Source: Folioceros fuciformis (taxonomy: Eukaryota). From it: 37,324 nucleotides of DNA. Shown here in pieces: positions 1 through 34,386 of this stretch (its first letter is position 1; each line of letters starts with the position of its first letter). The stretch is from contig JBNGIO010002532.1 in assembly GCA_049999805.1 (NCBI GenBank), positions 1-37,324 of the forward strand, written 5' to 3'. The position numbers were made by a program, and so were the translations under genes. The notes beneath the pieces were generated by a model, which was given only the letters and a program-made list of their open reading frames with translations, was not told the DNA's origin and ran no database searches.

Positions 1-532
1 GCAACGTTCATACGCGTGTGGAATCTGCACAGGGTAAGGAAGATGGTTTGTCAAGACAGGGACATACCTAGTCATGTGCCTGCGGAGGCATTCCAGGAGG
101 CAGAGCGACTATCAGGGCATGCGCCTACAGGACATGTTGTGGACGTGGGTGGAGGATGATTGCACCATGTGGACATGGCGAGCAATTCTTCTACTGCGCA
201 AACTGTTTGTGGATGAGGGGGGAGCAAATGCGTAGCTTGTGCCAAATGTTTGTGAAGGAGTGGGGGAGGAACTGCGCAGCCATGGCAGACATTAGGTGAC
301 TTGTTGGTCTGTGAAGGGATGGGGGCTAGAGGTAGAGAAAAAGGATAGTGGCAAGTGTGTCAGATTTTGTGTGAAGCAGTATGTACGTACGTAAGGGCCA
401 GAAGCCTGAACCCAAACACTGTGTGTGCTTCCGCTTTGCAGCTGTGGGGGCAGTACATCAGGCTGCCCGGCATTGTGGCACCTGCAATTCCAGCGTCGCA
501 TGCGTGCAAATTCATCCTTGTTTGAGGCGTGC

Positions 533-925
533 GCGCCCCTCGAATAACAGAGTCACAACTATGGTAGAGGCGGTTGCGAGCTGAACCCGTGTGACAGTGC
601 TTGAGACCGAGGGGAATAAGCTTTGTGAAGTTGCTTAACCTTGGGTACTTCCCTCATCGGACAGAGCTGAATGCTGCGAAAAATTGTTTGACTTGCTGAA
701 CAGTCCATTGGCCTGAATCACATGTCCTCTCTCCCGCTGGAGATGGGCTGTGTAATAGCGGTGGCCACTCTTGACTTGCATGGCAACCATCTCACAGTGT
801 TTCCCGTGGAGGCTTGCTCCTTGCGACTCACAATTGAAGACTTGTCCAACAAGAACTTGGCAGGTTTGCCGGCAGCACTTGGGAAGATGAGAACCTTACG
901 GAAGCTGGTACTTGCAGGGAATCTG
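533..925 (+). pseudogene. Degenerate leucine-rich-repeat gene fragment (LRRC40-like intracellular LRR), probably a processed pseudogene
   Basis: Reads SNNRVTTMVEAVAS*TRVTVLETEGNKL (stops at 582-584 and 636-638), frameshifts to [12 protein letters not shown] (stop 697-699), then [60 protein letters not shown]. These are LxxLxLxxN repeats with stops and frameshifts and no visible introns. The family assignment is from recalled similarity. Confidence 0.7.
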
Positions 926-1840
926 GAAGCGGGTACTTACACCTAAACCCTTACGGTCTGTAGATGAACACCTTTGTTCCTCAAGTTCCTAATAAGCAGG
1001 CTGCCGGTGCCAGACGTGGCCAGCACTGCAGCTATTGCCTCTGGCAATGTTTTCGGGGCAAATGTACAAGAGGCAATGGTTATGGCATGAAGGCAGGCAA
1101 TCTCGTTCAAGGTATTCTCACTCGCAAGGATGAAACTAGAGTAATCCACTACCGAAGTACCCTAAACCCATTCCAGGGACGAAAGTGTGCAGCGTGGCAG
1201 TGCACAAAATCCCGCGCAAATGTATGCACCAATGCACCGCAAGCGAAGTCCACGTGTCGCACAGCGACCATTTTCACCGCTACCTCAATAAGAGATTGAG
1301 AGGATTCGGACCCTACCACCTACAATTTCCCTGCCAGCAGTTGATCCTCCCGTACACACGATACCACCAAGCCCGCCTCATCATAACATCCGTTAGCCCC
1401 TAAACCTTGAAATGCACTCTTCTGTGAAGAACTCGCCATCGAAGGGAATGCCTGTTGCAGCGACCATGACCACCGTCACGGAACCACCTGACTGACGAAA
1501 TCTAAACAGCAGGCATAGCCAGCTCGCAGTGCATGTCTCCCAGGCGTAAGGCAACTTGCTTGCTCATCTGCGCCGTCCCGAGCCCCACCCAAGACACAGT
1601 TGTCATCGTGGTGACCTTACCAATCCTGCATACAGCTGGACATGAACAAGTTGCAGTGAGAAACCCGGAACCCAGTACTGTGAGTTGCAACAAGAACAGC
1701 CGCGACCTCTGACGTGTATTGCAATAACCCACCAGAGGAACTCCAGTCGACATAAGTGAATGTGTTGCAAGTGCGAAGTCCATTTGTGGCTTGCATCGGG
1801 AGGGCGTAGGGGCTTTCTGTATGCACCACGAAAGCAAAGC

Positions 1841-6860: not shown

Positions 6861-9148
6861 GCAGCAAGCGGCTCTTGCGTGCATGCCAAGGGCCAGAATC
6901 GGTTTGTGAAAGACGTGTTGCGATGGCTCGCATGGCAGGGTGTGCATACAGTTGTTGCACAACAAATGCTATATAATGCATGGAAGAGAAAAGGGTGTGG
7001 GGCACGCTACCAAATTGCAATGTGTGTACGTAAGTTGTGAAGGAACGATGTGATGCAGCCAGGATGAAGGAGCCGGGAGGTCCATCTGCCCGGGTGCTGG
7101 AAGAGGCGGAGAAGGGGGGCGGCAGTGGTGTGGTCTCGAGACTGGGGACAGACCTGGAGATGTCAATGTCGTGAGGCCGATCAACTACGAGAAGCAATGA
7201 TGCAAGAGTGCGGGTTCCAGCGCCAGGAGGAGGCAGTCTGGCAGGGAAGAGGGTGGATGGGCCCCGGCCCTCCGGTTGTGGAACAGCCAGAGGCAGACTC
7301 AGAGGCAGAGTCAGAGGCAGAGATTCTCGTGGGGACAAGTTTGCTCAGCACATTCTTGGTGCCTGGAAAGCGAAGGCAAAGAAGACGAGGAGGAGCGAGG
7401 TTTCCGTGATGGACAGGGAATATGCGCACATGTTGTAAATGGGAACCGTGGCGACGGGACGGGCGGGCCAGGGCATATACTGGGGCCAATAGTGGGAGGT
7501 GATGGGAGGTGATGGCAGGAGCATCTGGCCTGCTGTAGCCTGGAGTCGTGAGCTGCGGGGCTGTATCCACCGTTCAGTGCTTCTGGTGAGAGAAGCTGCT
7601 GCGCTATAGTTCGTTACAGTACCGTTGGCAGTTGTTGGGGTCTCGGGGCTACAACAGAGACACCTCCGGCTGTGGGGGTGACACCTGGTGGTGGTGTGCT
7701 GCCGACAATGCCGGGTGACGACAAGGTGCAGGTAGAGAACCCTCTTCTTGGAGCACACAGGGAATACGGCAGCAAAGTGACGAGTGCTCTCTCTCTCTCG
7801 TCACGAGGCCGCCTGGACGCTACAGTCCAAGGATGCGGGCTCTTTCCAGTTCACACCCTCAGACTCTGATCATGGCGATGGCCGGTGAGGATGTAGCCGA
7901 GCAGCTGGCAGCTGGCCCCAACGCCGCGTCGCTGATGATTGCTATGGGCAGCAGCCTAAAACCTACTTGTATCCTTCTGGGAAGAAGAGCAGGAATCTTT
8001 CAGTGGGATTGTTGGATTACTTGGTGATCCGTGTTACCACTTGTCTCGCCTCCTGGTTGCTAAGTGTCCTTGCTGGTACTGTACTCATAGGTGAGGGCCG
8101 CTTTCGGAGCAACAGCAGGTGAACTTGGTCATCTTCGTCACGGATCTTAGGGGCTTACGCAATACACCTCAGTCTGCTCGGTATATGGACCCTTGCTACC
8201 TTGGCATTCCCGATAATCCACGGCGCCCAAGCATCGGAGCGAATGACGCTCTTAGCACGAGCTTTGTCCTATCTCGAGCAGCTTGCTCCGGCGGGGTTAC
8301 AGACCAAGGAGTCTGATGATTCCTATGATTAGCAACAATTTTGTTGCGGTCATCATCTCGTCTTAGACAGCGGGCCGGTACCGTCTACAGCCCGGTGGGG
8401 TGGACCTCTCCACCATACAGTATGAATATTTCCTAAGGAAAGGAAAGGACGAGACAACGACCAGGAACATGAACCCAACATGCGCGGCACTCTTGTCTTA
8501 TTCTGCAATTCGGTCTCCTTGACGTCCGTTGTCTCGTTGCGAGTACTTTTACAGTTGCCTTCATCTAGTTCGTGCAGAGAGTGGGAACAATTCCCGAGAG
8601 GATTTTTGCTGGATTTTTAGATGCGGGTTCGCTTTTCACGTGTGCCTACTATGCACATCTCATCCATCAACGCACATACTGTGTAGCATTGCGGTTCTAG
8701 AGCTGGAGTCACCAATTCGTGATATTCCAACTGCTTTTCAAGTCTCCGGCATTTTAGTCTCACAACAAAATGCCTTGCTCGCAAGAAGATAACGGTACGG
8801 GAAACGAGGCTCCCCAATTGTTCTCTCGATTTCTATCTAGAGATGCGCACACTTCCTGCCCAACCACACAGTCTTGTAGTAGAAGAGAGTGAACCTGGGG
8901 TCTACTTCCGTTACTTGAAGGGAATTCGTTGAGGAATTCCAGCTGTAGCTCGAGTCTCTGTCCATCTCGTACAGTTATCCAAGTCTGAACAGGACGATAT
9001 CGGTAAGCAACAAGCACTGGAATGATCCACAGTTCGTATCGTCGTGTGATGTCGTGACCGGATTCCACGTTTGAATAATTGTACATATTTACAGCGCTGC
9101 TGACCTTATGACAAGTGTACATATTAAGGTACAAAACCTCACGCCATG

Positions 9149-12100: not shown

Positions 12101-14655
12101 GTCACAACTGTGGTCGCAAAAAGCTCCTCGTCATGAGCAACAGCCCCCACATCGTTCCCTCCCGGTACGTCCTTGGCCGTGAAGAAGCCCTCAAAACCAG
12201 GCTGCACTTCTGCCTCTCTAGAGTCTATGGACACAATTTTTGCATGCGGTCTTGTGCTGAGAACCAGAGCCGCATGCAAACCATGTGCAGGTAATGGAAT
12301 ATCGTCGCAGTACTCAGCTTCACCAGTTACCTGAGGAACAGACACAAAGACATGTGATAAGAGCAATTGTGCGCACAACAAGCTCACGGAACGTGAACAG
12401 CAAGTGTCGAGAGAATATGCAAACCTGTAGCTTAGCAGAAGTATGAACGAAGGGCAATCCAACAGAGGTACCCTTGGCCTTCTTTTCATAAATCTGCATT
12501 CCATGAGATGGCTCTCTATGGTACGTTTGGGCAGCTGATTTATAGCTGGAGGGCAACTGGTGAACATAACCCGCCTCCACTTCAAGCTTGTAGACTGTAG
12601 ACAGGAAAAATTTAAAGAAGAAGCTAGACGTTAGGGAACGACGAAACTCGACCATGCCACCTGGTGCTTTGTCTGCTATCACTATATCGTTTCCGAGAAC
12701 ATGGAGTGCACCATCTACAGTCTCCTGATTCCAGGGTTTCCCCTTCAGAAATGCTTCCGTTTTCAATGCACGCAACGGCACTGCAGCTACACCTCCATAT
12801 GCCAAAGTTACATCATCTACCAGCCAGACTCCATCAGCTTCAGACAAGGTCACACGCATGCCCGCATTAACAAGCGCAATGTCGTCATCACGCCGATGAG
12901 CTTGTTTAAATTCCTTCACAAATTCATACTTTCTTGTCCAAGGAATGAACACAGACAATAGGATTTCAGAGTTCTGCAGATCAACCTTTCGATAACCTAT
13001 AAAAAAACTCTTCGCATCCACCGTTCTTGAGGAGTTATCACGGGAAAGCACGGTGAAAGTCGCTCGACTTGCCATCCATAGGGGATTCAGGTCCGAAATT
13101 GGACTAGCCGTACAAATGTTGCCACCAACAGAGGCCACATTCCTAATTTGACTTCCTGCAAACCACCGGAGCTGTTCAATGAAAGCCAGACAAGCTGACG
13201 TCTCAAAAGATGGGCGCTCCTTCACACTTTGTCGAAAGGCATCCAAAAGCTGTGTCAGAGTACATGCGGCACCCACCAAGATGCCATCGTCACTGATTTT
13301 CACTGTGTTCATCTCAGGCACACTTGAAACTCCAATGAGCACAGGGTAGATCAAGCCCTTGAATCTAGTTTCTATTCCAATTTCTGTGTTTCCAACCACA
13401 AGCTTGGCATCAGGGAACTTCTGTTTCAGAGACAGGAGATCGTTTAACTTTGTTGGGCGGTACCATACCATCCCTCTCATCCCCTTCAGGAGCAAAGGTT
13501 GCACCTTCCTTTTCACTAGTTCAGGCGGAAAGATAAGCTCACATGTCGAACCCTCATAGCCTCCAGCCTTCACACATGGCTTCTCACCAGCCTTTACCAG
13601 GTCGTGGCGGGCAGCAGCAACCTCCTTAAGCTCATACCCATTTTTTGGTTGCGCCTCAGACGTTTTGCCACATCCACAAGGCTTCCCTGTCGACGGGCAA
13701 ATCACCTGACCCTCCTTCGGGGTGACCATCTCTTTAGCATCTCCGACACCGGCAGCCGAGGCAGCTTCAGCGGTATATACAGAAGGGTCTGACTTGGCAA
13801 AGGTTCTGAATGCATCCAGAATGGGACGATAGCCTGTACATCGGCAGAGATTGCCTGCAAGGTGCTCCTCAATCTCTTCAAAGCTCGGAGGCTCGTCACG
13901 GGCCTTCAGCAGCGAATACATGGACATTACAAATCCTGGAGTACAGAATCCACATTGGGACCCATGAGCATTCGACAACGCTTCCTGCACATCACCATAC
14001 CAGACGCACACTACTTGTTACACACATATCATAGGAAACACACCATCCCAACAGGACCTGGGCAAAGTCACCTGCACTTTGTGCAAACCCTGCCGCCGGT
14101 TGCCAATTCCCTCAACAGTAACCACATGCATTCCTTCCACAGAATACAGTGGAGTGAGGCACGCATTCACCGCCCGGTGCCTGCATGCATCCACACACCT
14201 TCCACGTAAGCACACGAGGTCAACCAGATAGCTCATCCTGATCCAGTCAAGCAAGACCACTTACACGATGAGCTGCCGAAGAGAATCGTAGTGCGAAACC
14301 ATGACAGTGCAAGCCCCACATCCACCTTCCCCGCACCCAAGCTTCGTCCCCGTCAAGTGCATATCTGACGGCCAATATAAAACAAATGTGAGACACACAA
14401 CCCACACCCGATTTTCCAACTTCGACTTCGACCAGCTCTTACATCCGTCGTGGAATTCAAACTCTGGCCTTGCGCGTACACTGGAAATCAAGGGACACCG
14501 ACCACCCCAAACACCACACACCAATTACCCAGTCGTAGATACTCCAGCAAGGTGCGGTGCGCAGCGTCATCCGGCAGCACGTGCCGCTTCCCGTTCACGT
14601 ACAGGATGGCCTCGGAGGACGCGAATTCAATGGAGGCCTCGTCGAGCGAACCCAT
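9149..14655 (-). CDS. XDH1: Xanthine dehydrogenase (molybdo-flavoenzyme), ~1383 aa
   Basis: 14 exons: 14655-14529, 14364-14265, 14180-14072, 13984-12425, 12330-12088, 11994-11680, 11593-11354, 11218-10934, 10846-10625, 10479-10318, 10176-10042, 9947-9711, 9636-9463, 9391-9149 (4152 nt). 2Fe-2S motifs [14 protein letters not shown] and [22 protein letters not shown] domain [15 protein letters not shown]; Moco domain [27 protein letters not shown]. The N-terminus MGSL and FGGKE (Glu) fit XDH rather than aldehyde oxidase. Confidence 0.97.
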
Positions 14656-14862
14656 GGCGTCCTGGCTTCTCAGACGCAAGAGCTCGTGCTCACTAAGACG
14701 GGGAAGATTCGCCTTGCGTTGTACAAGCTCAAATTTGTGTTGCGCAAGCTGGGCTGGGAGCTCCCAGAGGCAGCTGCTGCTGATGCCGCTGCTGGTCCGT
14801 GAATTATTGGGAGAGAGGCTGCTGGGTGGTAAATGGAGCCGAAAGTGAGGGCCGTGGCAACG

Positions 14863-14868
14863 TTATAT
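14863..14868 (-). promoter_or_regulatory. TATA-like box upstream of XDH
   Basis: ATATAA on the minus strand ~210 nt upstream of the ATG. Positional inference only. Confidence 0.3.
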
Positions 14869-15131
14869 GCATGCGGCTTTGGCCATTACAGGCAATTCCA
14901 CCAGCCTTCCGCGTGGTGGCCAGGCCCCGAGCCCCAGTACCTGTCTCTCCACTTGTCGCTGTTTCTCACTCCTACCAGCCTATCGAACACAGCGCCATCC
15001 AGATCCAGGACTTCGTGTGACTATGTCTTGCTTCGTGTCCATGGAGGAAAGAAAGGGCCACCATAGAGGAACGAGGAAGAATATCATTCCTATTACTCTA
15101 ATTAATCTTTGCATACGTTTTATGTACCTTG

Positions 15132-15486
15132 AAAAGTCCTTGCCCATGGCCCCCATGAATCTCAAAAAGTCCTTGCCCATGGCCCCCATGAATCTCAAAG
15201 CAAGAGGATGAAGAGGATGAAGATATGTCTGTCTTGTAGGGGAGAATATTTATGGACTTTGGCGATCCCACAAACCTCTGCTGCCCAAAAAGGCTGTCTC
15301 TCAGTAAAACCCTATTACACAAAGTATATGGACATCCCGAACTATATTATGCATAACAAAGTAGTGCCCCACGTTGTCCCATGGAGACCTTGTATAACAA
15401 AGTAGTGCCCCACGTTGTCCCATTGAGACCTTGTGCTGATAATGGCAACCCCACAACCCCATGTCAATAATGGCAACCCCACAACC
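15132..15486. repeat. Cluster of short tandem duplications (33 bp x2, 41 bp x2, ~20 bp x2) in a decayed TE-like segment
   Basis: aaaagtccttgcccatggcccccatgaatctca at 15132-15164 and 15165-15197; ataacaaagtagtgccccacgttgtccca(tg/tt)gagaccttgt at 15353-15393 and 15394-15434; ataatggcaaccccacaacc twice at ~15439-15486. Confidence 0.85.
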
Positions 15487-16189
15487 GTGAATAGAGAGAT
15501 AAAACCATGAAATATATGTTAGGGCTCTATGTTTGGTAGCTTAACACATAGTGATCTTGGAATTGATCTTGAGATAAATAGATTTTCCATCTTGTTATTT
15601 AATGAAGTCTCTATTTGTTTCCTTCTTTTTTTACTTGTAGTAAATAATTTTTCTATCTGTTTTTTTTAAGGGTTATTTCTTTTCTTTTAAGTGTTTCAAA
15701 CTAAACTAGCAACTACAATTGAATGAATTGAGATGTCATTTGGGCTTAATCCATTCTTTGGCACCAGACATTACATGAGCGGGTGGTAGTCATGGGAATG
15801 GTGTTTAAGAGGGCTAGCCTCCTATTTCGTCTTTGGCTCTATTTTTGGTTCTTCTATCATTTTTGGGATCTCACATCTCTTGTCAATAAATTATATAACT
15901 TTTGTTAATGAAGTATCTTTATTATTTAGATTTCTATAGATATGATAGGTATATATAAATCAACATGTTGTTATTATATGTTATACTCAACTTAACTTAA
16001 TATGAACAAGTCATTATCACAAAAAAAACACACACACATTTTATAATTTAATGATTTTTCTTCTCTTTCTTTCTTTGATTCCCATTAGGAACTTCATTAT
16101 CTCCAATCATGCATGGTAAGGATTGGCATGCAATTATCTCAAATCATAACATGTTATATCAGCCCCCTTCCCGCTTGGGCTTTTTGGGT

Positions 16190-16537
16190 ATTGGCTGCCC
16201 CTACTTGGTTTTAGTCCTTTATGGGTTCTTTCCTCTGCTAGCCCCTTTTCCCCCCCTTGGCTTTTGGCCTCTATACGTTCTTTCCTCGGTTCGCCCTCCT
16301 CTATGCGTTCTTTCCTTGGCTAGCCCTCTTCTCTTTTGACCCTCGGCTACCCCTCTTTGTTCTTAGCCCGTTGTGTTCCCCTTAGCTACCCCTTGACTAC
16401 CCCTCTTTACTCTTGGGCCGCTGTGTTCCCCTCGGCTACCCTGTTTCGCTCTTAGCATGTTGTGTTCCCCTCGGCTACCCTTCTTTGCTCTTGGCCCGCT
16501 ATGTTCTCTTCGGCTACCCCTCTTCGCCATTGGCCCG
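16190..16537. repeat. Degenerate pyrimidine-rich minisatellite, ~39 bp unit
   Basis: Consensus cggctacccctctttgctcttggcccgctgtgttcccct. About 5 well-preserved units at 16344-16537 and more decayed units upstream. Confidence 0.8.
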
Positions 16538-17281
16538 ATCCATGAATCTCTTAAAGCATGTCACTTTTGAACGCTGATCGAAGTAATTAACATTAAAATG
16601 AAATTACGTATGAAATCAATATTAAACGTCTTATTGAACACTTTTTATTACTATAGCGTCAGATGTAAGCTCCTGCAATGGCCCAAACCTTGGCCTTTAA
16701 GATACTCAAATCTACCTGGATTTTGACGTCAACCTGTTTTATGGAGAACATCTTAACGTATTGTTCACAGAAAAATATTAAAAATAGAAACATTGGTCCA
16801 TAGATACGTAAGCCGGACACATTAAGTGGATGCTCACTTTTCCCAAGTACATACACTCCTCAAGCTTCCGGCCAGCTTCTGATCTACGATTCCCCAGGAT
16901 CGAAAAAGGACTTACGTAGCAGGTAGCGGAGTTGAGCTTACCCACACTGGTCCCTCTGAAACCGTCAGGCTACTCCAAACAGTTGAACTCTTCTGCGAGC
17001 CACACGGGCTCGCGTGCAAAGAATCTGGTTGTGGACATTATTCCACAAGAAACTGCGAATCAAATGATCTAGATAATGGTACAATACCCTACAAGCGGAT
17101 TCAACGATAGCGGACAGATGCGGGTGAAAAGTTGTCCGCATTTCTCAGCTGGTTTCGCATGCCGCGAACAGCTTGACTCTACAATTGACTCTACTCTTGG
17201 CACAACCCTCAGTCATCGCAATAATAGTTTCTTACCTCATCAACCAGTCTCTAGGCCCCTCACTGCGCCGGTATGATACAC

Positions 17282-20200
17282 TTAACCATCCAATCGCAGT
17301 TCATTCAATCCCACCATCCTCAAGTAGTTGAAATGAGCCTTTAGAGCTGTCCAAAACTACAAGGACGCAAACAGTTCAGCTTCAGACAAGCGTGAACGAG
17401 CACAATCTGTAAGCAGCGGGAAAAGAGGAGGACAGGTACTTACAGAGGGATAAAATGTGTAAGGAACCTTGAACTCTTCGCATGTCATCCTCACTATGGA
17501 CTGAATTGCTGGATAATAGACGTGGCAAACTGACGGAAACAAGTGATGTTCGATCTGAAAGGCGGCAACGGATTCAGGTCAGCCGAAAGCATCCAACAAA
17601 ACTAAGTTTCGCACAAGTTCTCAAGACACATCACTTAAACTCGAATTCCAACAAATCCGTGGTTCTATCCATGGCTTCAGCATACTTCAATTATCATCGT
17701 CAAGGATGACTCGAATGGTACGGACAATAGTATCATCATTAGCCAGTCAAGCACCGCTAATCAGTGGCCGCATCCCTCATGATAAGGGCCAGGCCCAGCC
17801 CTCCCACAGAGGACTCCACTTAACTACGTGACAGTCACTAGACGGCTTCACCGTGCGGCAAAATAACATAATTAACCCTGATCACTAAATACCTCCTGAC
17901 AGTACAACACATGAAGTGCTATCACATAGCCAACCACCGACGCTTGGTTCCAACAGTGACTCACAAGATGAGGCATGCCTCTATCCACAAAGGACTGAGA
18001 AACGTAACCAAGGCTAATCCCATAGGATTAGCTTCTTATCAAACGAAGACAATGCTTGTCACCCGTATCGCTTCAGTGTGTTGCAAGAGTGTCATCACCG
18101 CTTTCCCACTCAAATGGTACGGACAACACAATTCATCATCAGCTTAACTAACCCCACCCGAGGCCGCTGAGGCACGCCCAGGCAATTTCAAGAAGGCGAT
18201 TCACATTGCGAAAGGTCGGACGACGAGTTACCTGATGGTTTAATCCTCCACTAACATGTGTCCAGAAAAAGGATCCGGGGCTGAAGTTTGTAGTTGTCCT
18301 GACCTGTCAAGAATTTACCAAACAACCATAGGACAAATCAGAATTCACAGTACGCCGAGTACGATAGCCCAGAAGGTAAAGAAGGAGGGTTGACTAAACC
18401 TGAAGAGCTGCCCAGCTCTGGTTCACCACAGGAGTTTCACCACTGGAATCAACCGCTGGAAAAGCAGCATCCTCGACAACGTGGGCAACCTGGAAGAGGA
18501 ACGCTAGCATCCATCCGGTGACTAGCTGCAGGAAAGGAAAGACAACATTCAATAGGACATTCGTTTGAGCTTCAAGAACTAAGAAAGCAGTGAGTTCGGA
18601 TGAGGTCAGAGTCACATGAAAACCTGCGAAGCAATATAAAGAATGATGAAATTTGAAGTACTGTGGTGGCTGTATAGAAGGGGTAAAACAAACATGTAAA
18701 GCACGTAGAAGACCTTTCCCCCACAGAAAATATTGAACTCCAGTGGCGTCATCTTTGCAACCTTCACACTGAACCCCAGATACACATGTAAGCGTCCAGT
18801 CTACCAGATAGAAATGCCCAGATGAATCATCTTTTAAGCCAATTTCAGCGGATTTCTCATCACATTGAAACCAAACACAAGTTACAACAGCTGAAGACAT
18901 GAGCGATGAGCAGAAGAGAGCACTCACGGGCCAATGGCTCCCTTGATATACGCTGAGAAATCATCAAGAAAAACACTTTTCAGTGCCAGGAGTCCATACA
19001 AAACAGCCAAATATATGTGCTGCATCATTAACAAAACAGCGAGATTACTTGAAAGCCATCTTTATCAATAAGCGACAACGGAAACTCTATCCATTTTTCG
19101 TCACTGATGATTACCTGATAAGCATGGTACCATTGCCTGGGTTGCTGGGAAGTCACCCTTCGCAAGTCAGGATCTTTCACTCCTGCATACAACCGGCATC
19201 AGTTGCAAGCTTCAGGCACTAAGGGAAAAAGCTCAGAAGGGACTTCGGTGCCATACTTATGTCTGGGTCATAGTTGTCCACATTTGTAAAGGAGTGATGT
19301 CCAACAACATGCTGCTGTCTCCACATAAAACTGCATGCCATTAAAGTTCAGAGGCTGTCCAAAAATGGTGAGCGCGTATATACACATACACTTGCAAGAG
19401 AGCAACGAACACCACAAACCTGCTTGCACCAACCAAGTCCAAGCTAGCACCCATTACGTAACCCAGGCTAGTCCACTGCGAATAAGCCCCTGTCCAAGAA
19501 CGGAGGGGACAGACCCATTCAATGGTTGCCACGTCATCTTACACATTGAAATATTTCAAGCAATAAATCGCCACTCACGAACTACTGAGCTTAGAAAAAG
19601 GGTGACGTTACCATGGTTGCCATCGTGCTGGATAGAGACACCAACCTCACCAGCAAAGAATCCCATTCCAAGAGCGAACAGTAAAGAAACGACAAAGTTT
19701 TGGCCTCCAAAGAATGCTATGTAGTAGCACAGCACAAAACCAGCGAATATAAGCAGAGACTTGACGAACATGTGAGGATGAAATCTTGGGTTTATCTGCA
19801 AAACCAATTTAGAGTGATTACAAACAGACCATCTTTCCATTCGCAGCAGGAAATACGGACATCAACTTCACAAGGTTGTGCAATACCCTGTGCTTTTTGA
19901 AGTAAGCTTCAACCCTTTGCTTAAGTGTTAGATAGAACTGTTCACTGGCGGCATCAGAATACTGGACAACCGATGATCTCAAAGTGGCATCTTCTGGGCT
20001 TGTTCTCACAACACCAATGCAGTACTTGGCCAGCATTTTACTGGAACAGATTAACAAACACTAAAAAGTTTAGAGCTAACCGAGCTACTGTTTCCGGTAC
20101 AGAGTCAGACTAGCAAAACAGCTGTTCGGTTTAGAGCTCAGGCGCTCAGACATCACATGGACAAAGTTGTTCAAGCTGGAAGCGTCATAAGGAAGTAACA

Positions 20201-20710
20201 ACACATCTCATACACTAAAGAAAGAAGGATACGGACTTGAAGTACCTGACGTATAGAGGATGGTAAGAATCAAACAGCTGCGTGGAGTCGTGTCCAGCCT
20301 TGACGTATATCAGGCTACCGCCAGGGTGATTGGGGACCCTGCTCAATAATTCGGAAGAATATTTTTACAAATCCTGAATTTGGAAGTGCAACTCGCAAAA
20401 TACCGGCAAACAGAGGTCACCAGGACAAGCATGCGACTGACTTCAGACAGTGACAAAGAAATGAACAAACCGACAGCGACACAGAACCCGGTGATCAGGA
20501 AAGGAACTCCAGGCGCGCCTACCATGCAGTAACGTCGTACACCTTCCCCCAAATAATCAACCAACAATCTTCGGGCGTGTTGTGCAGAGCCACTTCCCCC
20601 AAGCTAAACTCCTTCAAGGGAAGCCCGTCCTCCTTGACCCCGCCCGCAGCCCGGCTGCGCAGACCCTCGGAAACCGCGACAGCATTGACCACGGAGGAAG
20701 GTGGCGACAT
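17282..20710 (-). CDS. DES5: Front-end delta-5 fatty acid desaturase with N-terminal cytochrome b5 domain (ARA/EPA synthesis), ~483 aa
   Basis: 13 exons: 20710-20523, 20338-20246, 20040-19887, 19795-19612, 19489-19420, 19330-19257, 19182-19115, 19019-18928, 18768-18624, 18525-18400, 18303-18232, 17554-17444, 17356-17282 (1452 nt). Cyt b5 motif [28 protein letters not shown]; His boxes HDGNH, HVVGHH, QIEHH; C-terminus LRLDG, as I recall for bryophyte delta-5 desaturases. Confidence 0.93.
17672..17745 (-). ncRNA. Intronic box C/D snoRNA (copy B), guide for 25S rRNA 2'-O-methylation
   Basis: Minus strand: TGGCT-A-ATGATGA(C, 17739-17733)-TACTA-TTGTCCGTACCA(guide, 17727-17716)-T-TCGA(D')-GTCATCCTTGAC-G-ATGATAA(C')-TTGAAGTATG-CTGA(D, 17680-17677)-AGCCA. 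Perfect 5-bp terminal stem. The guide is antisense to 25S rRNA UGGUACGGACAA. Confidence 0.88.
18070..18143 (-). ncRNA. Intronic box C/D snoRNA (copy A), same 25S rRNA guide
   Basis: Minus strand: GCT-G-ATGATGA(C, 18139-18133)-ATTGTG-TTGTCCGTACCA(guide, 18126-18115)-T-TTGA(D')-GTGGGAAAGCG-GTGATGA(C')-CACTCTTGCAACACA-CTGA(D, 18076-18073)-AGC. Terminal GCT/AGC stem. Confidence 0.88.
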
Positions 20711-21073
20711 TTTCGAACGCTGGACAACCAGAACACCAGAAGAAGGCAAATGACCTGGATGTTCCCAGGGAGAGGCAAACTAGGGCAAACCGACACGAAG
20801 CGACCCCAGCGCACCTTGTTCGTCACCGTGCCGGCACAACTCTGGTTGGATCCGGCTTGCTACGACCTGGGAAGCGCCGTGAAGGCACGGGTCTTAGGCG
20901 GGACGAGTGGGTGCGGGAGAGAAGGATCCAGCGACATGCAGCCTTGTAACAGCAATCCGAGCCCGATCCGGTCCTCTCGGGAGCAATGCCGCTGCCTCCG
21001 TCCCCTCTGTGTCGCTAGAGCGGAGAGGCAGAGTGGGAGGATGTTCACTGTAGACACCCTGGGGGATCCTAGG

Positions 21074-21079
21074 TTTATA
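21074..21079 (-). promoter_or_regulatory. TATA box candidate for the desaturase
   Basis: TATAAA on the minus strand ~365 nt upstream of the ATG, followed by a CT-rich tract. Confidence 0.3.
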
Positions 21080-24000
21080 CTTGGAGGCCAGTCTGTTCAC
21101 GGCATTCGCGCGCAGGCATACAGATCTATGCACAACATAGTTTTGGGCCGCTGCCTGTTCTGACTCGGAAAATCGGACTGTGACTGTGTTGGAACTTCCT
21201 CGTCCATCCTTGTGCAAACAAAACATATTTTGCTGCCTTTCGGGACCTGCAAATAATATTTTACTCGCTTCGTGGACTGCACACAATAATTTTGCTTCCT
21301 CTCGACCTCCGAAGGTTGTTGTTTGTTCTCTGGGTCGTCTACCATTGCCAGGGAGTCCAATATAATTACTTACAAATATTGGTTGCTAGCACAAGCCTTG
21401 AATGGCGACTTTTTCTACATACAATATTCTGTTTGTAGGTAGTCTTTTATGATGTCCGATTTTCTAGATAGCGTCCATAAATGAGTAAGTGTAGCAATGC
21501 ATTCCTATCCAAGGAATATCCAAGTTATTTAACCTCCCTCATGTGGTTATCAGATCTAGCTTATTGAATCTCCCTCTTAAAATACTTGTGCTATATGTAA
21601 AGGAATGATTTTTCTAGCCACATCCAATTGGATAATTTAAGAATCAATCTGGACAATATCAATGTTGTCTATCCGCATGCAATGTACTCATCTTATTGTT
21701 GTAGTTGAAGGCTAATTGTATGCTTACCGTGGAAGCCATTTACTTATGCACTTGCAACCAATCAAGAATATCCTGTCATGCCAATAATTAATATTGCATG
21801 ATAGAAAATGAGCCAAGCCCTTAGTGAGAGTTAATATAGTATCATTTAGTATTAGAAATAGAGTACTTTGTAAGATATATTTTTGTTGTACTCTAAGGGA
21901 TTTCTATTACGAATTGTTGTGTTACACTCATGCTGTAGGCCCTAAAACCTTCAAAAGTGTTCTTAGTAAAATATTCGAGAACAAAAAATGTTATAACACG
22001 TTTACTTAAGGTACATGCATGGTATTTGGATTAGTCTTGAGGTATAGCATGGGGCCATTAAGGCATATTCACTCGGCTGGAGTCTAGGTTGGAGAAGCTA
22101 GAAACACGACAATGACTAGGGTTTAGAAGATGCGCGTTAAGAAGAAGAAAAAAAATACAAATCTCAATCTCAAGGGCACGAGCTTGTGGGAGCTCGATCC
22201 TTAGGCACACAAGCTTGATACAACATAGCCTAGTCATAGGGGAAAGCACAAGAGCAAGGAAAGCTCACAAGCGTGAGGGAAGCTTGGTCGTTGGAGCTTG
22301 CCTAAGAGAGTAGCTCAGCTACAAAGATGAGATGAGGATGGATTGGAGAGAGGAACCGAACTGTGAAGGTAGGGTGGGTCTATAAGAGCCCAACCATGAA
22401 GGTAGGGCAGGGCTTTAGAAGCCTAACCTTGAAAGTACGGTTGTTCAGTAGACGTATAAGAGGGAAGCTTACCAAGCCCCAAGGGAAGCTAGTCTAGTAC
22501 AAAAAGTTCTTATTCTTTTTAGTAGAAATGTAAGAAACTTTAAAAGGAATTGGACAAGAATTCTAACAAAGAGTCCAACATTTGGGAATTGATTTGCGTT
22601 AAGAGCATGCTAAGATGATTTGGCAACCTACTATGTCTTTGAAGTGTCAAGGTTGATTGGATTTCAATTCTGGTATGTTAGGGCATTATGCTACTAACTG
22701 CATAAAGACACGCAATCAGATTACATTTGTGTCATTTTGCCGAGTGTTTAAGAATCTAGAACATAAGGCCAAAGATCTAAATATTTAAGCCTCCCTAGGC
22801 CACCATCGCCTAGATCAAGAGTGAGGATTACGGAGGCACAACAAGAAGGAGTCCCTACTATTGTACAGATAATAACTCCGAATAGAAGTACACCAGTGTA
22901 GTAAGTAGATACAAGGAGAAGCCATTGACTAAATCATAAGTATTTTCAAGAGTTGTGGATGAAGGATATTTCTGGTAATGCTAACGATAGTCAAGAGATC
23001 ATGGTGGCAAGGTTATCATATGCTAGAAATAGTTATAGCCATAAGAAGAGGATGAAGAAGCGAGGAGAAGAGAGCGTGATAATTCCCCTAAGGCATCAGA
23101 AATTAGGGAGTAAACACATGTTCAAAAGAGAAAGAAGGAGTTGCTATTTAGATAGAAGATCAACTCGTTGGGTCAGGAGGAGGAGAAATCATTTGCAAGA
23201 GGGGCTAACGAGTTAGTATTTCCACTTAACATTAGTCGCGAGGTTGTTGTAATGTTAGAGGAGGAGTTGAACAAGATGATATAGTGGCCGCCTAAGAAGG
23301 TTAACAAGGTCTAATCAAAATGAAAAGATTCTAGAAAGCCTATTTTGTCCACTTTGAATTTGGTTCAATCCGCACTCCATATCTACATTTTATCTATTTT
23401 TTTCTTAACATGAAGGCCGTCGACATGTCTTCATAAATTTTTTATTCCAAAAACTTGATTAATACAAAAACTAATGAGTCCACAATTTGAATGTTTTTAA
23501 AAAAACTTGATAATTCAAGTCTATTGAAAGTGGTACGCTAGTAGATCGGCATGTACTCAATATGGGCACATGTGTTCAATGTGATACCCAAGTGAGTGTG
23601 CTGGTGGTGCAAATAGGGGGAGGGAGTGGATCGGGCGAGGAGGAAGTAGGGGTCGTCTTTATTCCGTCAATGTCCACATGACGGGAATAGTAGATGCTTG
23701 TATATAGGAGTTTGGATGCAACCATGTAGCCACACCGGCGGTCGCCCCCCCCCCTTAGTACCGATGTCCACAACCGTGAACGTCATGTTAAGTTTCCCGC
23801 CACTTCAGCACTGCTTTGCGTCATTTGTGGATTGTGTTTGTAACAAATCCCTATTTGCACCGCCGGAATGCGGCCATTTATGGAACCCTGTACTCAATGA
23901 TTCCCTGAACCCGAAAGGCAAGGCCTAAATTACCACTTGTCCAACCATGCTCACCAGACGAAATGTCATTTGCTGGGCTCGAGGTACGAGCATGGGCTGG

Positions 24001-31800: not shown

Positions 31801-34386
31801 TTGTATCGTCGAACCACGTCCTGCAGAGATGCCGAGACAAAAAAGTGCTGTTGCTTCAACCTAAGCTCCTTACCCTGCATATGACGTCATCAAACACTTG
31901 GGATGAGACATCGTTAGTGGTGTCATAAAGTTACGATGCCACAAAACACATAGATGGAGCTCGACTTGAGGGACCAAGCGCATCTGCAACAGACCTGATA
32001 AGTTCGATCATCCGGATAAAGAATGCTGCTGATGGTCTCCGCTCGCTGTTTACTGAGGATAGCATTCACATAATCCCCTGTATTGAATGATTGCTATCCA
32101 AGTGTACAAAGTCCTCATAAGCCATAGTACAGCACGAATTCCAGGCCCAACACAAGGACCCGTTACATAAAACTGGACATGCTATACTGAAAATGTGGGC
32201 AGGATCGCTACCAAATCAATTTCTCCACTTGGTTTAGCGGCCCAAAGGCGCATATTTATCGTGTTGTTCGTACCATAACCGGGAATAGGGTTGTCATAAG
32301 CAACAGCTTCAACCTAACATGAGCCAGATGTGAAACATCAGGAGGCAGAATGAGCAGCTGAGTGAGACACGAACAGCACACCAGAGTCGAGGAATAGCCA
32401 AACTTACTAGTTCTCCAGGAATCCATTTAAAATGCTTCTGCCCATTGCGCAACTCTTGTTCTACTGTTCCATAAAACTGGACATGGCACACAACCGAAAA
32501 ATTCAAATAGAGACCTGTGCACAAAATTCTACCAACGACTTGTAAATCAGGAGGCAAAACTCACTTGCACAGAGTATGTGACATGCACCCGCTCAATCTC
32601 CCATGGATTCCCAAAGTTCAGCCAATAGTCAGGCTGCTCGTGTTGATACCCATCTTGAATTGTCTGCCTGAACATGCCATACTGGTACCGAATGCCATAC
32701 CTAACCCGGAAACAAAAGTGCTCATTAGAGGACCATCACAACCAAAGCATTGCCAGAACAGCGTTCTCTCAGCTGACAGGCACGTACCCCCAAGCTGGAT
32801 AGTCTAGCGTTGCAAGAGAATCCAGGAAACACGCAGCTAGGCGTCCCAGTCCTCCATTGCCCAAGGCAGCGTCCCGTTCCTGCACGCGAAGACATTAGAC
32901 TGATTTCCATGCCCGGGCTTGTGAGACGGTGAATTACCATCGGGGCTCATGTCTGGAAAAGAGAAGCCCAGGAGAACATCACATTCTCACCCAATCAATT
33001 CAATTCTACTACTGAATCGAAAGTAAGCCTATCCGACATGCCTGACGTTATCACAGATATCAGCTAATTGGCAACTGCCTGACCTTATTGGTTCCTGAAA
33101 TTGCATACCAGCTCCCTAACATGCTGCAAACCAAATTTTATACGATACTGCCACGTTTAGGTGGATACGATTTAATGATGGAAGGGTAGCCAGCCAAATC
33201 AGTCCCTTTCCAAACACCTACCTGTTCCACCAACACCTCCAAGTTGTAGCCTAGCTGCCTTAATGCTTCGGCGTATTGATCCTTGATTCCAAGATTGAAA
33301 ATGCTGTTAAGCAAGGAACGACCTACGCATGACGTGCATGGTCAGAGTCATCAAGTCGCACCTGCTGTTTGCAAGCGAGACATGAATGTTCAAATAGAGT
33401 TCACACACCCATCAAGAACTCCATGGACAGGTAGAACACTCGTTTCACATCCCTGTCCCTAAAGAACTGCTGGGTATCATTCCAGCTCTCAATAAGACGG
33501 TCCCGTACACTGTAAGCTGTACCCTGCACAATGTTCTCAACCGATTGTGAGAACCCAGAACTTGACCACTGGCAACACAATAAGGAATCAGGTGGCACAT
33601 CCCAGCCGGCAACTTCTTTGAGGATACCTGGTAGGCCTCAAAGTCATCGAACTTGAACCGTGACCGAGCAACCGTGTACTCAACATGATCCACTATACTT
33701 TTTTGTATACTCCTCACGTCATCCTTCAAATACTGGTCCACTATGCTGTACAAGAGCGCTGTTCTCCCTTTCATCTCCGGTGTCTCCAGCAGATCATCTG
33801 CTTTTCTGGAGAGTACAGAAAGCGGTCGGCTTTGCACCTTTCCCTTCCCTGAAAGAAGCTCCTCATCCAAGACTGACAGCAAAGCTTTTGTTATGTTTTT
33901 CTTATCCGCGGAGTTCAAAATCTTCTGCCCCTGCTTGTCCGTGAGATGGAAGGATTTGGAAACATACTCTCCGTCTTCAAGGTCAATTGCAGCTCTGGAC
34001 ACCTGCAAACCGAGGTCCTGAAAAGTGGAAATCACCCTTTGCAGTAATGCTGGCCTGTTGAAAGCCTTCACACGTATCACAGTGTGTTCCTCAGAGCTGT
34101 CGTTGTCCACCGTAACAACACTGGAAATAGAATTCCCAGCTCTGCGGGAGGCGGATAAATCTGGACGGGTATCCACGACGTCCACGGCGTTCTTCCTCAG
34201 TTGAGCAATCGTGAGACAGGCAACCTTGTTGACCGGGCAAACCGTGAAACCACCACATGGCAACTTACTCCTCAGAGCACGTCCATGATACGAAGAATGC
34301 CGAGCTCCATACTCCCGAGAGTGACTCTCGAATTCTGCTTTGGCCAAGAAAGGAGTCTGTGCTGCTACATGCGCCAGGCTCCCCAT
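28838..34386 (-). CDS. Alpha-1,4-glucan (starch/glycogen) phosphorylase with transit peptide and N-terminal ACT domain, ~1030 aa
   Basis: 22 exons: 34386-33628, 33523-33409, 33322-33222, 32879-32788, 32700-32565, 32476-32408, 32313-32212, 32093-31995, 31874-31764, 31619-31413, 31164-31057, 30948-30853, 30732-30676, 30542-30396, 30318-30259, 30187-30083, 29979-29818, 29726-29653, 29568-29445, 29363-29272, 29203-29080, 28990-28838 (3093 nt). GT35 motifs [79 protein letters not shown] (PLP Lys), FSSDRTI. Confidence 0.95.

Follow-up and report, generated by a model that had tools for sequence, protein, structure and literature searches.

One intron in a desaturase gene of Folioceros fuciformis is far longer than the gene's other introns, and the question that it raises is what the additional sequence contains. 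The gene lies on the minus strand of contig JBNGIO010002532.1 (GenBank assembly GCA_049999805.1, positions 1 to 37,324; this whole 37,324-nt stretch is the window referred to below). An earlier sequence-only reading of the same DNA had proposed that the intron hosts a tandem pair of box C/D small nucleolar RNA (snoRNA) genes aimed at 25S ribosomal RNA (rRNA). Our analysis supports this proposal and assigns the pair to a named family: with a probability that we put at about 85%, the intron holds two paralogous snoR117 genes that are processed from the host transcript and that guide methylation of the uridine equivalent to Arabidopsis 25S Um2103/U2114.

Two box C/D units in one spliced intron

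Read on the minus strand, the intron opens with GT at 18231 and closes with AG at 17555. Its removal is documented by a public sequencing run (X1), whose cDNA-like nature we judged solely from its spliced contigs; in the contigs of this one run, RNA ends and levels are not visible and rare variants are dropped. X1 contains 87% of the intron's sampled words. Its contigs align to positions 14000-22000 at ≥99% identity with zero differing letters and span 14 introns of a single minus-strand gene, all with CT..AC ends on the plus strand, which indicates that the run carries spliced transcripts of this organism. Two further runs, X2 and X3, gave one short partial match each and were uninformative. 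An X1 contig of depth 153 joins 17554 to 18232, so that exactly 677 nt with CT..AC ends on the plus strand are removed. The remaining 13 X1-supported introns of the gene measure 74-211 nt, in essential agreement with the 75-205 bp estimated from the letters, and the 677-nt intron is thus about 3.2 times the length of the next-longest. The assembled exon structure places it at intron 11 of the coding sequence (CDS), as had been proposed, or at intron 12 of the transcript if the intron in the 5' untranslated region (UTR) is counted. For annotation, the snoRNA pair accounts for one intron being three times longer than the gene's others.

In box C/D snoRNAs, a short terminal stem brings box C (RUGAUGA), close to the 5' end, next to box D (CUGA), close to the 3' end. 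Both units in the intron have this layout, with AUGAUGA and CUGA joined by a terminal stem, and both lie on the sense strand of the desaturase (Table 1). Unit 1 begins 88 nt past the 5' splice site, and a 324-nt spacer separates it from unit 2. Each unit carries the same 12-nt guide, then one U, then D', precisely as the sequence-only reading had described; its coordinates and boxes for the two ~74-nt units also hold on minus-strand reading, the sole qualification being that D' is one position off CUGA. The exact guide 12-mer occurs twice in the window and once more with one mismatch, at 32264-32275(+), against about 0.09 sites expected by chance, and none of 100 shuffles reached three. We take the mismatched site itself to be a chance occurrence, as the covariance model R1 described below has no match there at E ≤ 10. 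An inverted repeat (I2) between the unit 1 guide and 18293-18304 (83%) was likewise judged to be chance. The minimum-free-energy folds of the units are indistinct from those of shuffles (z +0.23 to −1.83) and uninformative, as expected for box C/D RNAs; that of unit 2 includes the terminal stem (z −1.83).

Table 1. Positions of the snoRNA units, their elements and the host gene in the window
Feature	Position	Strand	Description	Basis
Unit 1	18070..18143	-	snoR117-like box C/D snoRNA gene, 74 nt	read from sequence
Unit 1 terminal stem	ends of 18143-18070	-	GCU/AGC, 3 bp	
Unit 1 box C	18139-18133	-	AUGAUGA	
Unit 1 guide (D' antisense element)	18115..18126	-	TTGTCCGTACCA; the predicted target U would pair with A18118, fifth nucleotide upstream of D'	
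Unit 1 D'	18113-18110	-	UUGA	
Unit 1 C'	18097-18092	-	UGAUGA	
Unit 1 box D	18076-18073	-	CUGA	
Unit 2	17672..17745	-	snoR117-like box C/D snoRNA gene, 74 nt	read from sequence
Unit 2 terminal stem	ends of 17745-17672	-	UGGCU/AGCCA, 5 bp	
Unit 2 box C	17739-17733	-	AUGAUGA	
Unit 2 guide	17716..17727	-	12-mer identical to that of unit 1; A17719 is the fifth nucleotide upstream of D'	
Unit 2 D'	17714-17711	-	UCGA	
Unit 2 C'	17702-17697	-	UGACGA	
Unit 2 box D	17680-17677	-	CUGA	
Host intron	17555..18231	-	677 nt, GT..AG; houses both units	
Host CDS	17282..20710	-	483 aa, 13 coding exons	splice joints from X1 contigs, scripted translation
5'UTR intron of host gene	20720-20814	-	95 nt	X1 splice joint
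3'UTR intron of host gene	17025-17235	-	211 nt	X1 splice joint

Assignment to the snoR117 family

At its gathering thresholds, Rfam gave zero matches in the window. When 17400-18400 was searched by E-value, snoR117 (RF01423) was the best family for both units, with 35.6 bits for unit 2 (E 9.5e-6 in this 1-kb search and 3.5e-4 over the whole window) and 24.6 bits for unit 1 (E 0.012 in the 1-kb search). An E-value scan of the whole window returned four matches at E ≤ 1, all four on the two units, with no other snoRNA candidates at that level, and the 324-nt spacer gave no Rfam match at E ≤ 10 other than weak box C/D matches that overlap unit 1. The Rfam snoR117 consensus has the same guide as the units, the same U after it and D' in the same register. 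The covariance search therefore bears out the earlier identification of box C/D snoRNAs and adds the family that had gone unrecognised, with both units under the gathering score.

Relatives were collected from metagenome contigs by a pattern consisting of the C-box core, a 5-10-nt gap, the guide plus U, NN and GAG, which yielded 38 loci with 39 units, 20 of them distinct. The guide and the C-box core are present in these relatives by construction, but the box D and terminal stem were not demanded by the pattern, and both were found in all of the units. The terminal stem covaries across the 20 distinct units: 86% of cells are paired, against 32-52% in slid controls, double changes occur in five of five pairs, and the covariation score was reached by none of 500 shuffles. 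Eleven of the 16 related loci tested exceed the Rfam gathering score for snoR117, and L008, L009, L003, L001 and L032 lie below it. Two bryophyte-like loci, L018 and L025, pass at 48.4 and 47.4 bits and have a UUGA D' box and a GGCU/AGCC-type stem, as in the window; the flowering-plant-like loci have snoR116 adjoining.

From the 20 distinct units, with the window excluded, we built a covariance model (R1) and searched the window with filters off. Unit 2 scored 53 bits (E 1.8e-12) and unit 1 scored 42 bits (E 2.1e-9), and with the next-best match in the 37-kb window at 12.2 bits (E 0.34), only the two units were found. On the strength of these scores, both units classify as divergent members of the plant box C/D family snoR117, even though they do not reach the Rfam threshold, and their resemblance to the family is far beyond chance.

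Predicted target in 25S rRNA

Counted upstream from D', the fifth nucleotide of both units is the A of GTACCA (A18118 and A17719), and by the fifth-nucleotide rule the methyl group would go to the U of UGG-U-ACGG in large-subunit (LSU) rRNA, the site that had been predicted from the sequence. The Arabidopsis Um near 2103 given with that prediction was also correct. Chen and Wu (2009; PMC2685112) describe Arabidopsis snoR117 as a 72-nt RNA from an intergenic cluster whose D' element directs 25S Um2103, and Kim et al. (2010; PMC2875012) report a 12-bp pairing of the D' element with 25S Um2103, a snoR117/snoR116/snoR85a/snoR85b cluster, a signal at the expected size on northern blots and localisation to the nucleolus. 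In the latter paper, the row for this snoRNA says 'Not modified' where other rows give yeast or human counterparts. A RiboMeth-seq table in Wu et al. (2021; PMC8053127) lists 25S U2114 with SnoR117 as its guide; U2114 would be Um2103 under a different numbering. The main text of PMC8583080 makes no mention of U2103, U2114 or R117.

As proxies for LSU rRNA, we used loci found by searching prokaryote assemblies for the 17-nt rRNA motif named in the earlier reading, a motif that contains the target site. Ten such loci were tested with Rfam, and four are contaminating eukaryotic LSU rRNA. In each of the four, the guide forms a perfect 12-bp duplex at a single site, which lies near position 2120 of the Rfam LSU model (by arithmetic on L054). 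The other six are not rRNA according to Rfam and were set aside as chance 17-mers. A scan of viral contigs for the motif gave zero matches, and Rfam at gathering thresholds found no rRNA in the window. These duplexes support the prediction that both units guide methylation of the uridine equivalent to Arabidopsis 25S Um2103/U2114.

The antisense elements upstream of box D were compared with eukaryotic small-subunit (SSU) rRNA, 5.8S rRNA and LSU model positions 1-2941. Within that range, the element of unit 1 forms no duplex of ≥9 bp covering the fifth nucleotide, and that of unit 2 forms a single 9-bp duplex that includes two G-U pairs. These D-side elements differ between units 1 and 2, and they differ among the bryophyte-like relatives as well. 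Since neither has a convincing target in the rRNA examined, we read the units as single guides.

A separate observation concerns the family as a whole. GC-rich, probably algal snoR117-like units (L010:8704-8784 and L001:998-1086, and likewise those in L004, L011, L020, L033 and L038) bear a second, conserved guide upstream of box D; its 12-13 bp complement in eukaryotic LSU rRNA lies about 208 nt further downstream than the first target (offset 410 versus 202 in L039). Flowering-plant-like units retain just a short remnant of this guide before box D. The snoR117 family may have begun as a double guide whose D-side target was lost in land plants.

State of the two copies

The two units align to one another with a score of 68, against 24.3 ± 6.5 for shuffled sequences, and none of 500 shuffles equalled it. 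Their flanks, by comparison, are no more alike than shuffles, both over the 88 nt upstream (99 of 200 as good) and over the 117 nt downstream (74 of 200 as good). The only direct repeats at the ~399-nt spacing of the units are the C-box/stem, guide/D' and D-box/stem blocks. The retention of boxes and guide between randomised flanks fits an old duplication after which the functional blocks stayed under purifying selection, and this suggests that selection acts on both copies.

The same comparison bears on whether unit 2 alone works, unit 1 being a duplicate in decay from which a stable small nucleolar ribonucleoprotein (snoRNP) is no longer formed. Unit 1 is the weaker of the two by several measures: its terminal stem has 3 bp rather than 5 and does not appear in its fold, and it scores lower both with Rfam (24.6 versus 35.6 bits) and with R1 (42 versus 53 bits). 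A degenerate second copy is moreover known in a relative, at L018:19-94, where the C and D boxes are weakened and the score is 33 bits. Yet the C, C' and D boxes of unit 1 are perfect and its guide is complete over all 12 nt, in surroundings that have become randomised relative to unit 2, and a neutral copy of that age should have lost boxes and guide alike. We therefore consider decay of unit 1 doubtful.

A more radical alternative is that both units are functionless relics or chance resemblances and that the long intron has another cause. The mature RNAs of both units are predicted ones, and both units fall under the Rfam gathering score, as this alternative would have it. It is nonetheless very improbable in view of the R1 E-values of 1.8e-12 and 2.1e-9, a guide identical to the snoR117 consensus and the selective retention of boxes and guide between the copies. 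The interpretation of the pair as two snoR117 genes is the one that we carry forward.

The host gene

The reading frame of the host runs from an ATG at 20710 to a stop that ends at 17282, and its transcript contigs extend from about 16670 to 21224. Front-end desaturases are recognised by an N-terminal cytochrome b5 domain with an HPGG motif and by three His boxes, the third of which carries a Q (QxxHH). In the predicted protein, HPGG lies in an N-terminal cytochrome b5 domain, and the three His boxes read HDGNHG, QHVVGHH and QIEHHLF, the third of them with the Q. Pfam searches on single exons detected Cyt-b5 at E 1.5e-7 and FA_desaturase at E 3.7e-6, the latter only a little under the cut-off, and P0001, a 71%-identical homologue, has both domains. 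Identity is 66-71% to moss and liverwort proteins (Sphagnum, Ceratodon, Riccia and Calypogeia), and this similar distance from both groups would be in keeping with a hornwort. Of the homologues named as desaturases, one from Selaginella ('acyl-lipid (8-3)-desaturase') is 63% identical, one from Lobosphaera ('Delta 5 desaturase') 55.5% and one from Mantoniella ('acyl-CoA dependent delta5-desaturase') 47%. The host is thus supported as a cytochrome-b5-fused front-end desaturase whose nearest named homologues are Delta-5 (acyl-lipid (8-3)) enzymes. In the sequence-only reading it was called a Delta-5 desaturase; motifs and Pfam uphold the front-end desaturase, and the Delta-5 regiospecificity is putative, following the names of homologues.

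Transcription and proposed processing of the pair

The host gene has a word depth of about 128-153 in X1, against 6-15 for a neighbouring gene. In addition to the spliced contig, X1 holds a separate contig of 637 nt (17625-18261, depth 8.45, 0 differences) that takes in 30 nt of the upstream exon and continues through both units, which shows that there is a precursor from the host in which both are present. In the bins 18806-19072, 19073-19339, 19340-19606 and 20141-20407, depth agrees to one decimal place with that of the exons alone (92, 142, 69 and 92 exon bases × 128.2/267 = 44.2, 68.2, 33.1 and 44.2), which means that no X1 contig lies on the other introns there. In contigs that drop rare variants, this is a weak hint that intron 11 persists longer than its neighbours.

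We propose the following route from gene to modified rRNA. RNA polymerase II would transcribe the desaturase gene, with the units included on the sense strand of the intron, and each unit would assemble a box C/D snoRNP on its C/D kink-turn. The proteins of such particles are fibrillarin, Nop56/58 and a 15.5K-type protein. Nucleases would then trim the intron or pre-mRNA to protected cores of ~74 nt, as for the polycistronic and intronic clusters of plants, and the 12-nt element upstream of D' would pair with LSU rRNA and direct 2'-O-methylation of the uridine opposite its fifth nucleotide. Each copy would serve as a single guide, its element upstream of box D having no detected rRNA target.

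Alternatively, a promoter of their own, within or close to the intron, could drive the units separately from the desaturase. Some 50 nt upstream of unit 2 there is a GGGCC-rich stretch that resembles the site II promoter motif. Independent polycistronic units make up the majority of plant snoRNA clusters. Arabidopsis snoR117 belongs to an intergenic cluster with snoR116 and snoR85a/b (PMC2875012, PMC2685112), and few plant snoRNAs are counted as intronic (PMC5122169). Against a separate promoter, only 88 nt separate the start of unit 1 from the 5' splice site, all five sites in the window that match the telo-box motif fall outside the intron, and the X1 contig is continuous from the upstream exon through both units, which indicates that the host transcript supplies a precursor. 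Independent transcription is accordingly unlikely, and we retain the host-derived pathway.

A variant of the host-derived pathway would have snoRNP assembly on the pair slow or gate the removal of intron 11, coupling desaturase output to the supply of the U2114 guide. Such gating, for which the weak hint of intron persistence is the sole basis, would explain why this intron gives the only intron-containing contig, and we regard it as very unlikely. If it were true, a promoter that responds to lipid remodelling, for example to temperature, would control methylation of this plant-specific 25S site, resulting in condition-dependent ribosome heterogeneity in the lineage.

Several points weigh against the reading of the pair as working snoR117 genes of the host transcript. 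The D' box of each unit departs from CUGA at one position, and the terminal stem of unit 1 has only 3 bp and is absent from its minimum-free-energy fold (z +0.74). At 35.6 and 24.6 bits, both units fall short of the snoR117 gathering score of 42, a threshold that is an operational cut-off of a flowering-plant-seeded model and not a biological feature. The target is a prediction from the four eukaryotic LSU loci and from Arabidopsis. The 637-nt intron contig could be plain unspliced pre-mRNA, and the discrete ~74-nt RNAs, their association with fibrillarin and the methylation are predictions. With these points taken into account, the identification of the desaturase intron as host of a snoRNA pair stands on two sense-strand box C/D genes within an exactly spliced CDS intron 11.

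Other features of the window

The minus-strand gene next to the desaturase (12323-14017, extending upstream to about 14860) encodes [2Fe-2S]-binding, FAD_binding_5 and CO_deh_flav_C domains, which fits a gene of the xanthine dehydrogenase / aldehyde oxidase type; X1 contigs cover it at a depth of 6-15. The stretch from about 16136 to 16560, downstream of the desaturase gene, may hold a tandem DNA repeat, as its stop-to-stop open reading frames (ORFs) in several frames contain short repeated peptide patterns. No X1 contig covers it. The telo-box motif occurs five times in the window (2058, 9873, 15307, 22117(-) and 36924; none in the snoRNA intron) against 0.89 expected, and none of 100 shuffles reached five. 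From its copy at 22117-22124(-) it is about 0.9 kb downstream to where the host transcript contig has its 5' end.

Comparison with known systems

Translation-related genes are the typical snoRNA hosts of vertebrates, and intronic snoRNA clusters have reportedly been described in rice and, to judge by the title of one paper, in Chlamydomonas. The sequence-only reading regarded a host outside translation as remarkable. Plant precedents run counter to this view: in PMC2875012, Arabidopsis intronic clusters are described in At1g31860 (histidine biosynthesis; snoR79a-c) and At2g33430 (plastid development; snoR90a/b), as well as in ribosomal-protein genes and eIF3G (snoR87-2a/b). PMC5122169 describes plant snoRNAs as lying mainly in polycistronic clusters, with few of them intronic. 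Because plant intronic clusters in hosts of this kind are already on record, the locus calls for no new mechanism. Like those Arabidopsis clusters, it combines at least two paralogous snoRNA genes in one intron on the sense strand of a spliced host, both units here being on the minus strand inside the intron spliced from 17554 to 18232. The Arabidopsis examples snoR79a-c, snoR90a/b and snoR87-2a/b differ in that they are H/ACA snoRNAs, whereas the window holds a C/D pair in a desaturase gene. What we describe is an ordinary plant intronic snoRNA cluster, comprising two unannotated genes that are orthologues or paralogues within a named family with a known target.

Compared with Arabidopsis snoR117, the window units share the box C/D architecture (74 versus 72 nt) and the same 12-nt D' element followed by U and D', and hence the same predicted target, Um2103/U2114. 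Their D' boxes are UUGA and UCGA in place of CUGA, and the spacer and D-side element are unrelated. The Arabidopsis gene is single-copy and intergenic with snoR116 and snoR85a/b, in contrast to two copies inside a protein-coding intron; snoR116 was not found in the window by Rfam scans at gathering thresholds or by whole-window E-value. No bryophyte snoRNA catalogue was among the top-ranked literature matches for hornworts, Marchantia or Physcomitrella. The pair adds a bryophyte-grade representative of snoR117 that Rfam's flowering-plant-seeded model misses at its curated threshold, and the 20 distinct units from environmental contigs extend the conservation of the guide for the plant 25S Um2103/U2114 site far outside the angiosperms.

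The host protein gave no tblastn match at E ≤ 1e-3 against the 38 snoR117 loci, many of which are short, and the association of desaturase and snoR117 looks lineage-specific. The closest parallel in layout is the bryophyte-like metagenome contig L018 (positions 1-700, minus strand). There, the distance from a 5' splice site to a snoR117-like unit whose D' box is UUGA is 89 nt, close to the 88 nt of the window, and a second same-strand copy lies about 300 nt downstream. It differs from the window in its host, the preceding exon encoding an H+-pyrophosphatase (H+-PPase; Pfam H_PPase, E 1.1e-29), in the weakened C and D boxes of the degenerate second copy and in that the contig ends before the 3' splice site. 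A GC-rich metagenome contig, L003, carries two nearly identical snoR117-like units at 884-981 and 1364-1461 (+), 480 nt apart. In L008, a different box C/D-like unit (7496-7567 (+); R1 25.4 bits) stands 393 nt downstream of a snoR117-like unit and has GUGAUGA, two CUGA motifs, one internal and one terminal, and an AGCU/AGCU stem; the ten ORFs around it have no credible Pfam family. Short same-strand snoR117 clusters thus recur, at least one of them intronic, while the host gene changes. The genes of this family shift their genomic context, from intergenic positions beside snoR116 in flowering-plant-like loci, to an H+-PPase intron in one bryophyte-like locus, to the desaturase intron described here.

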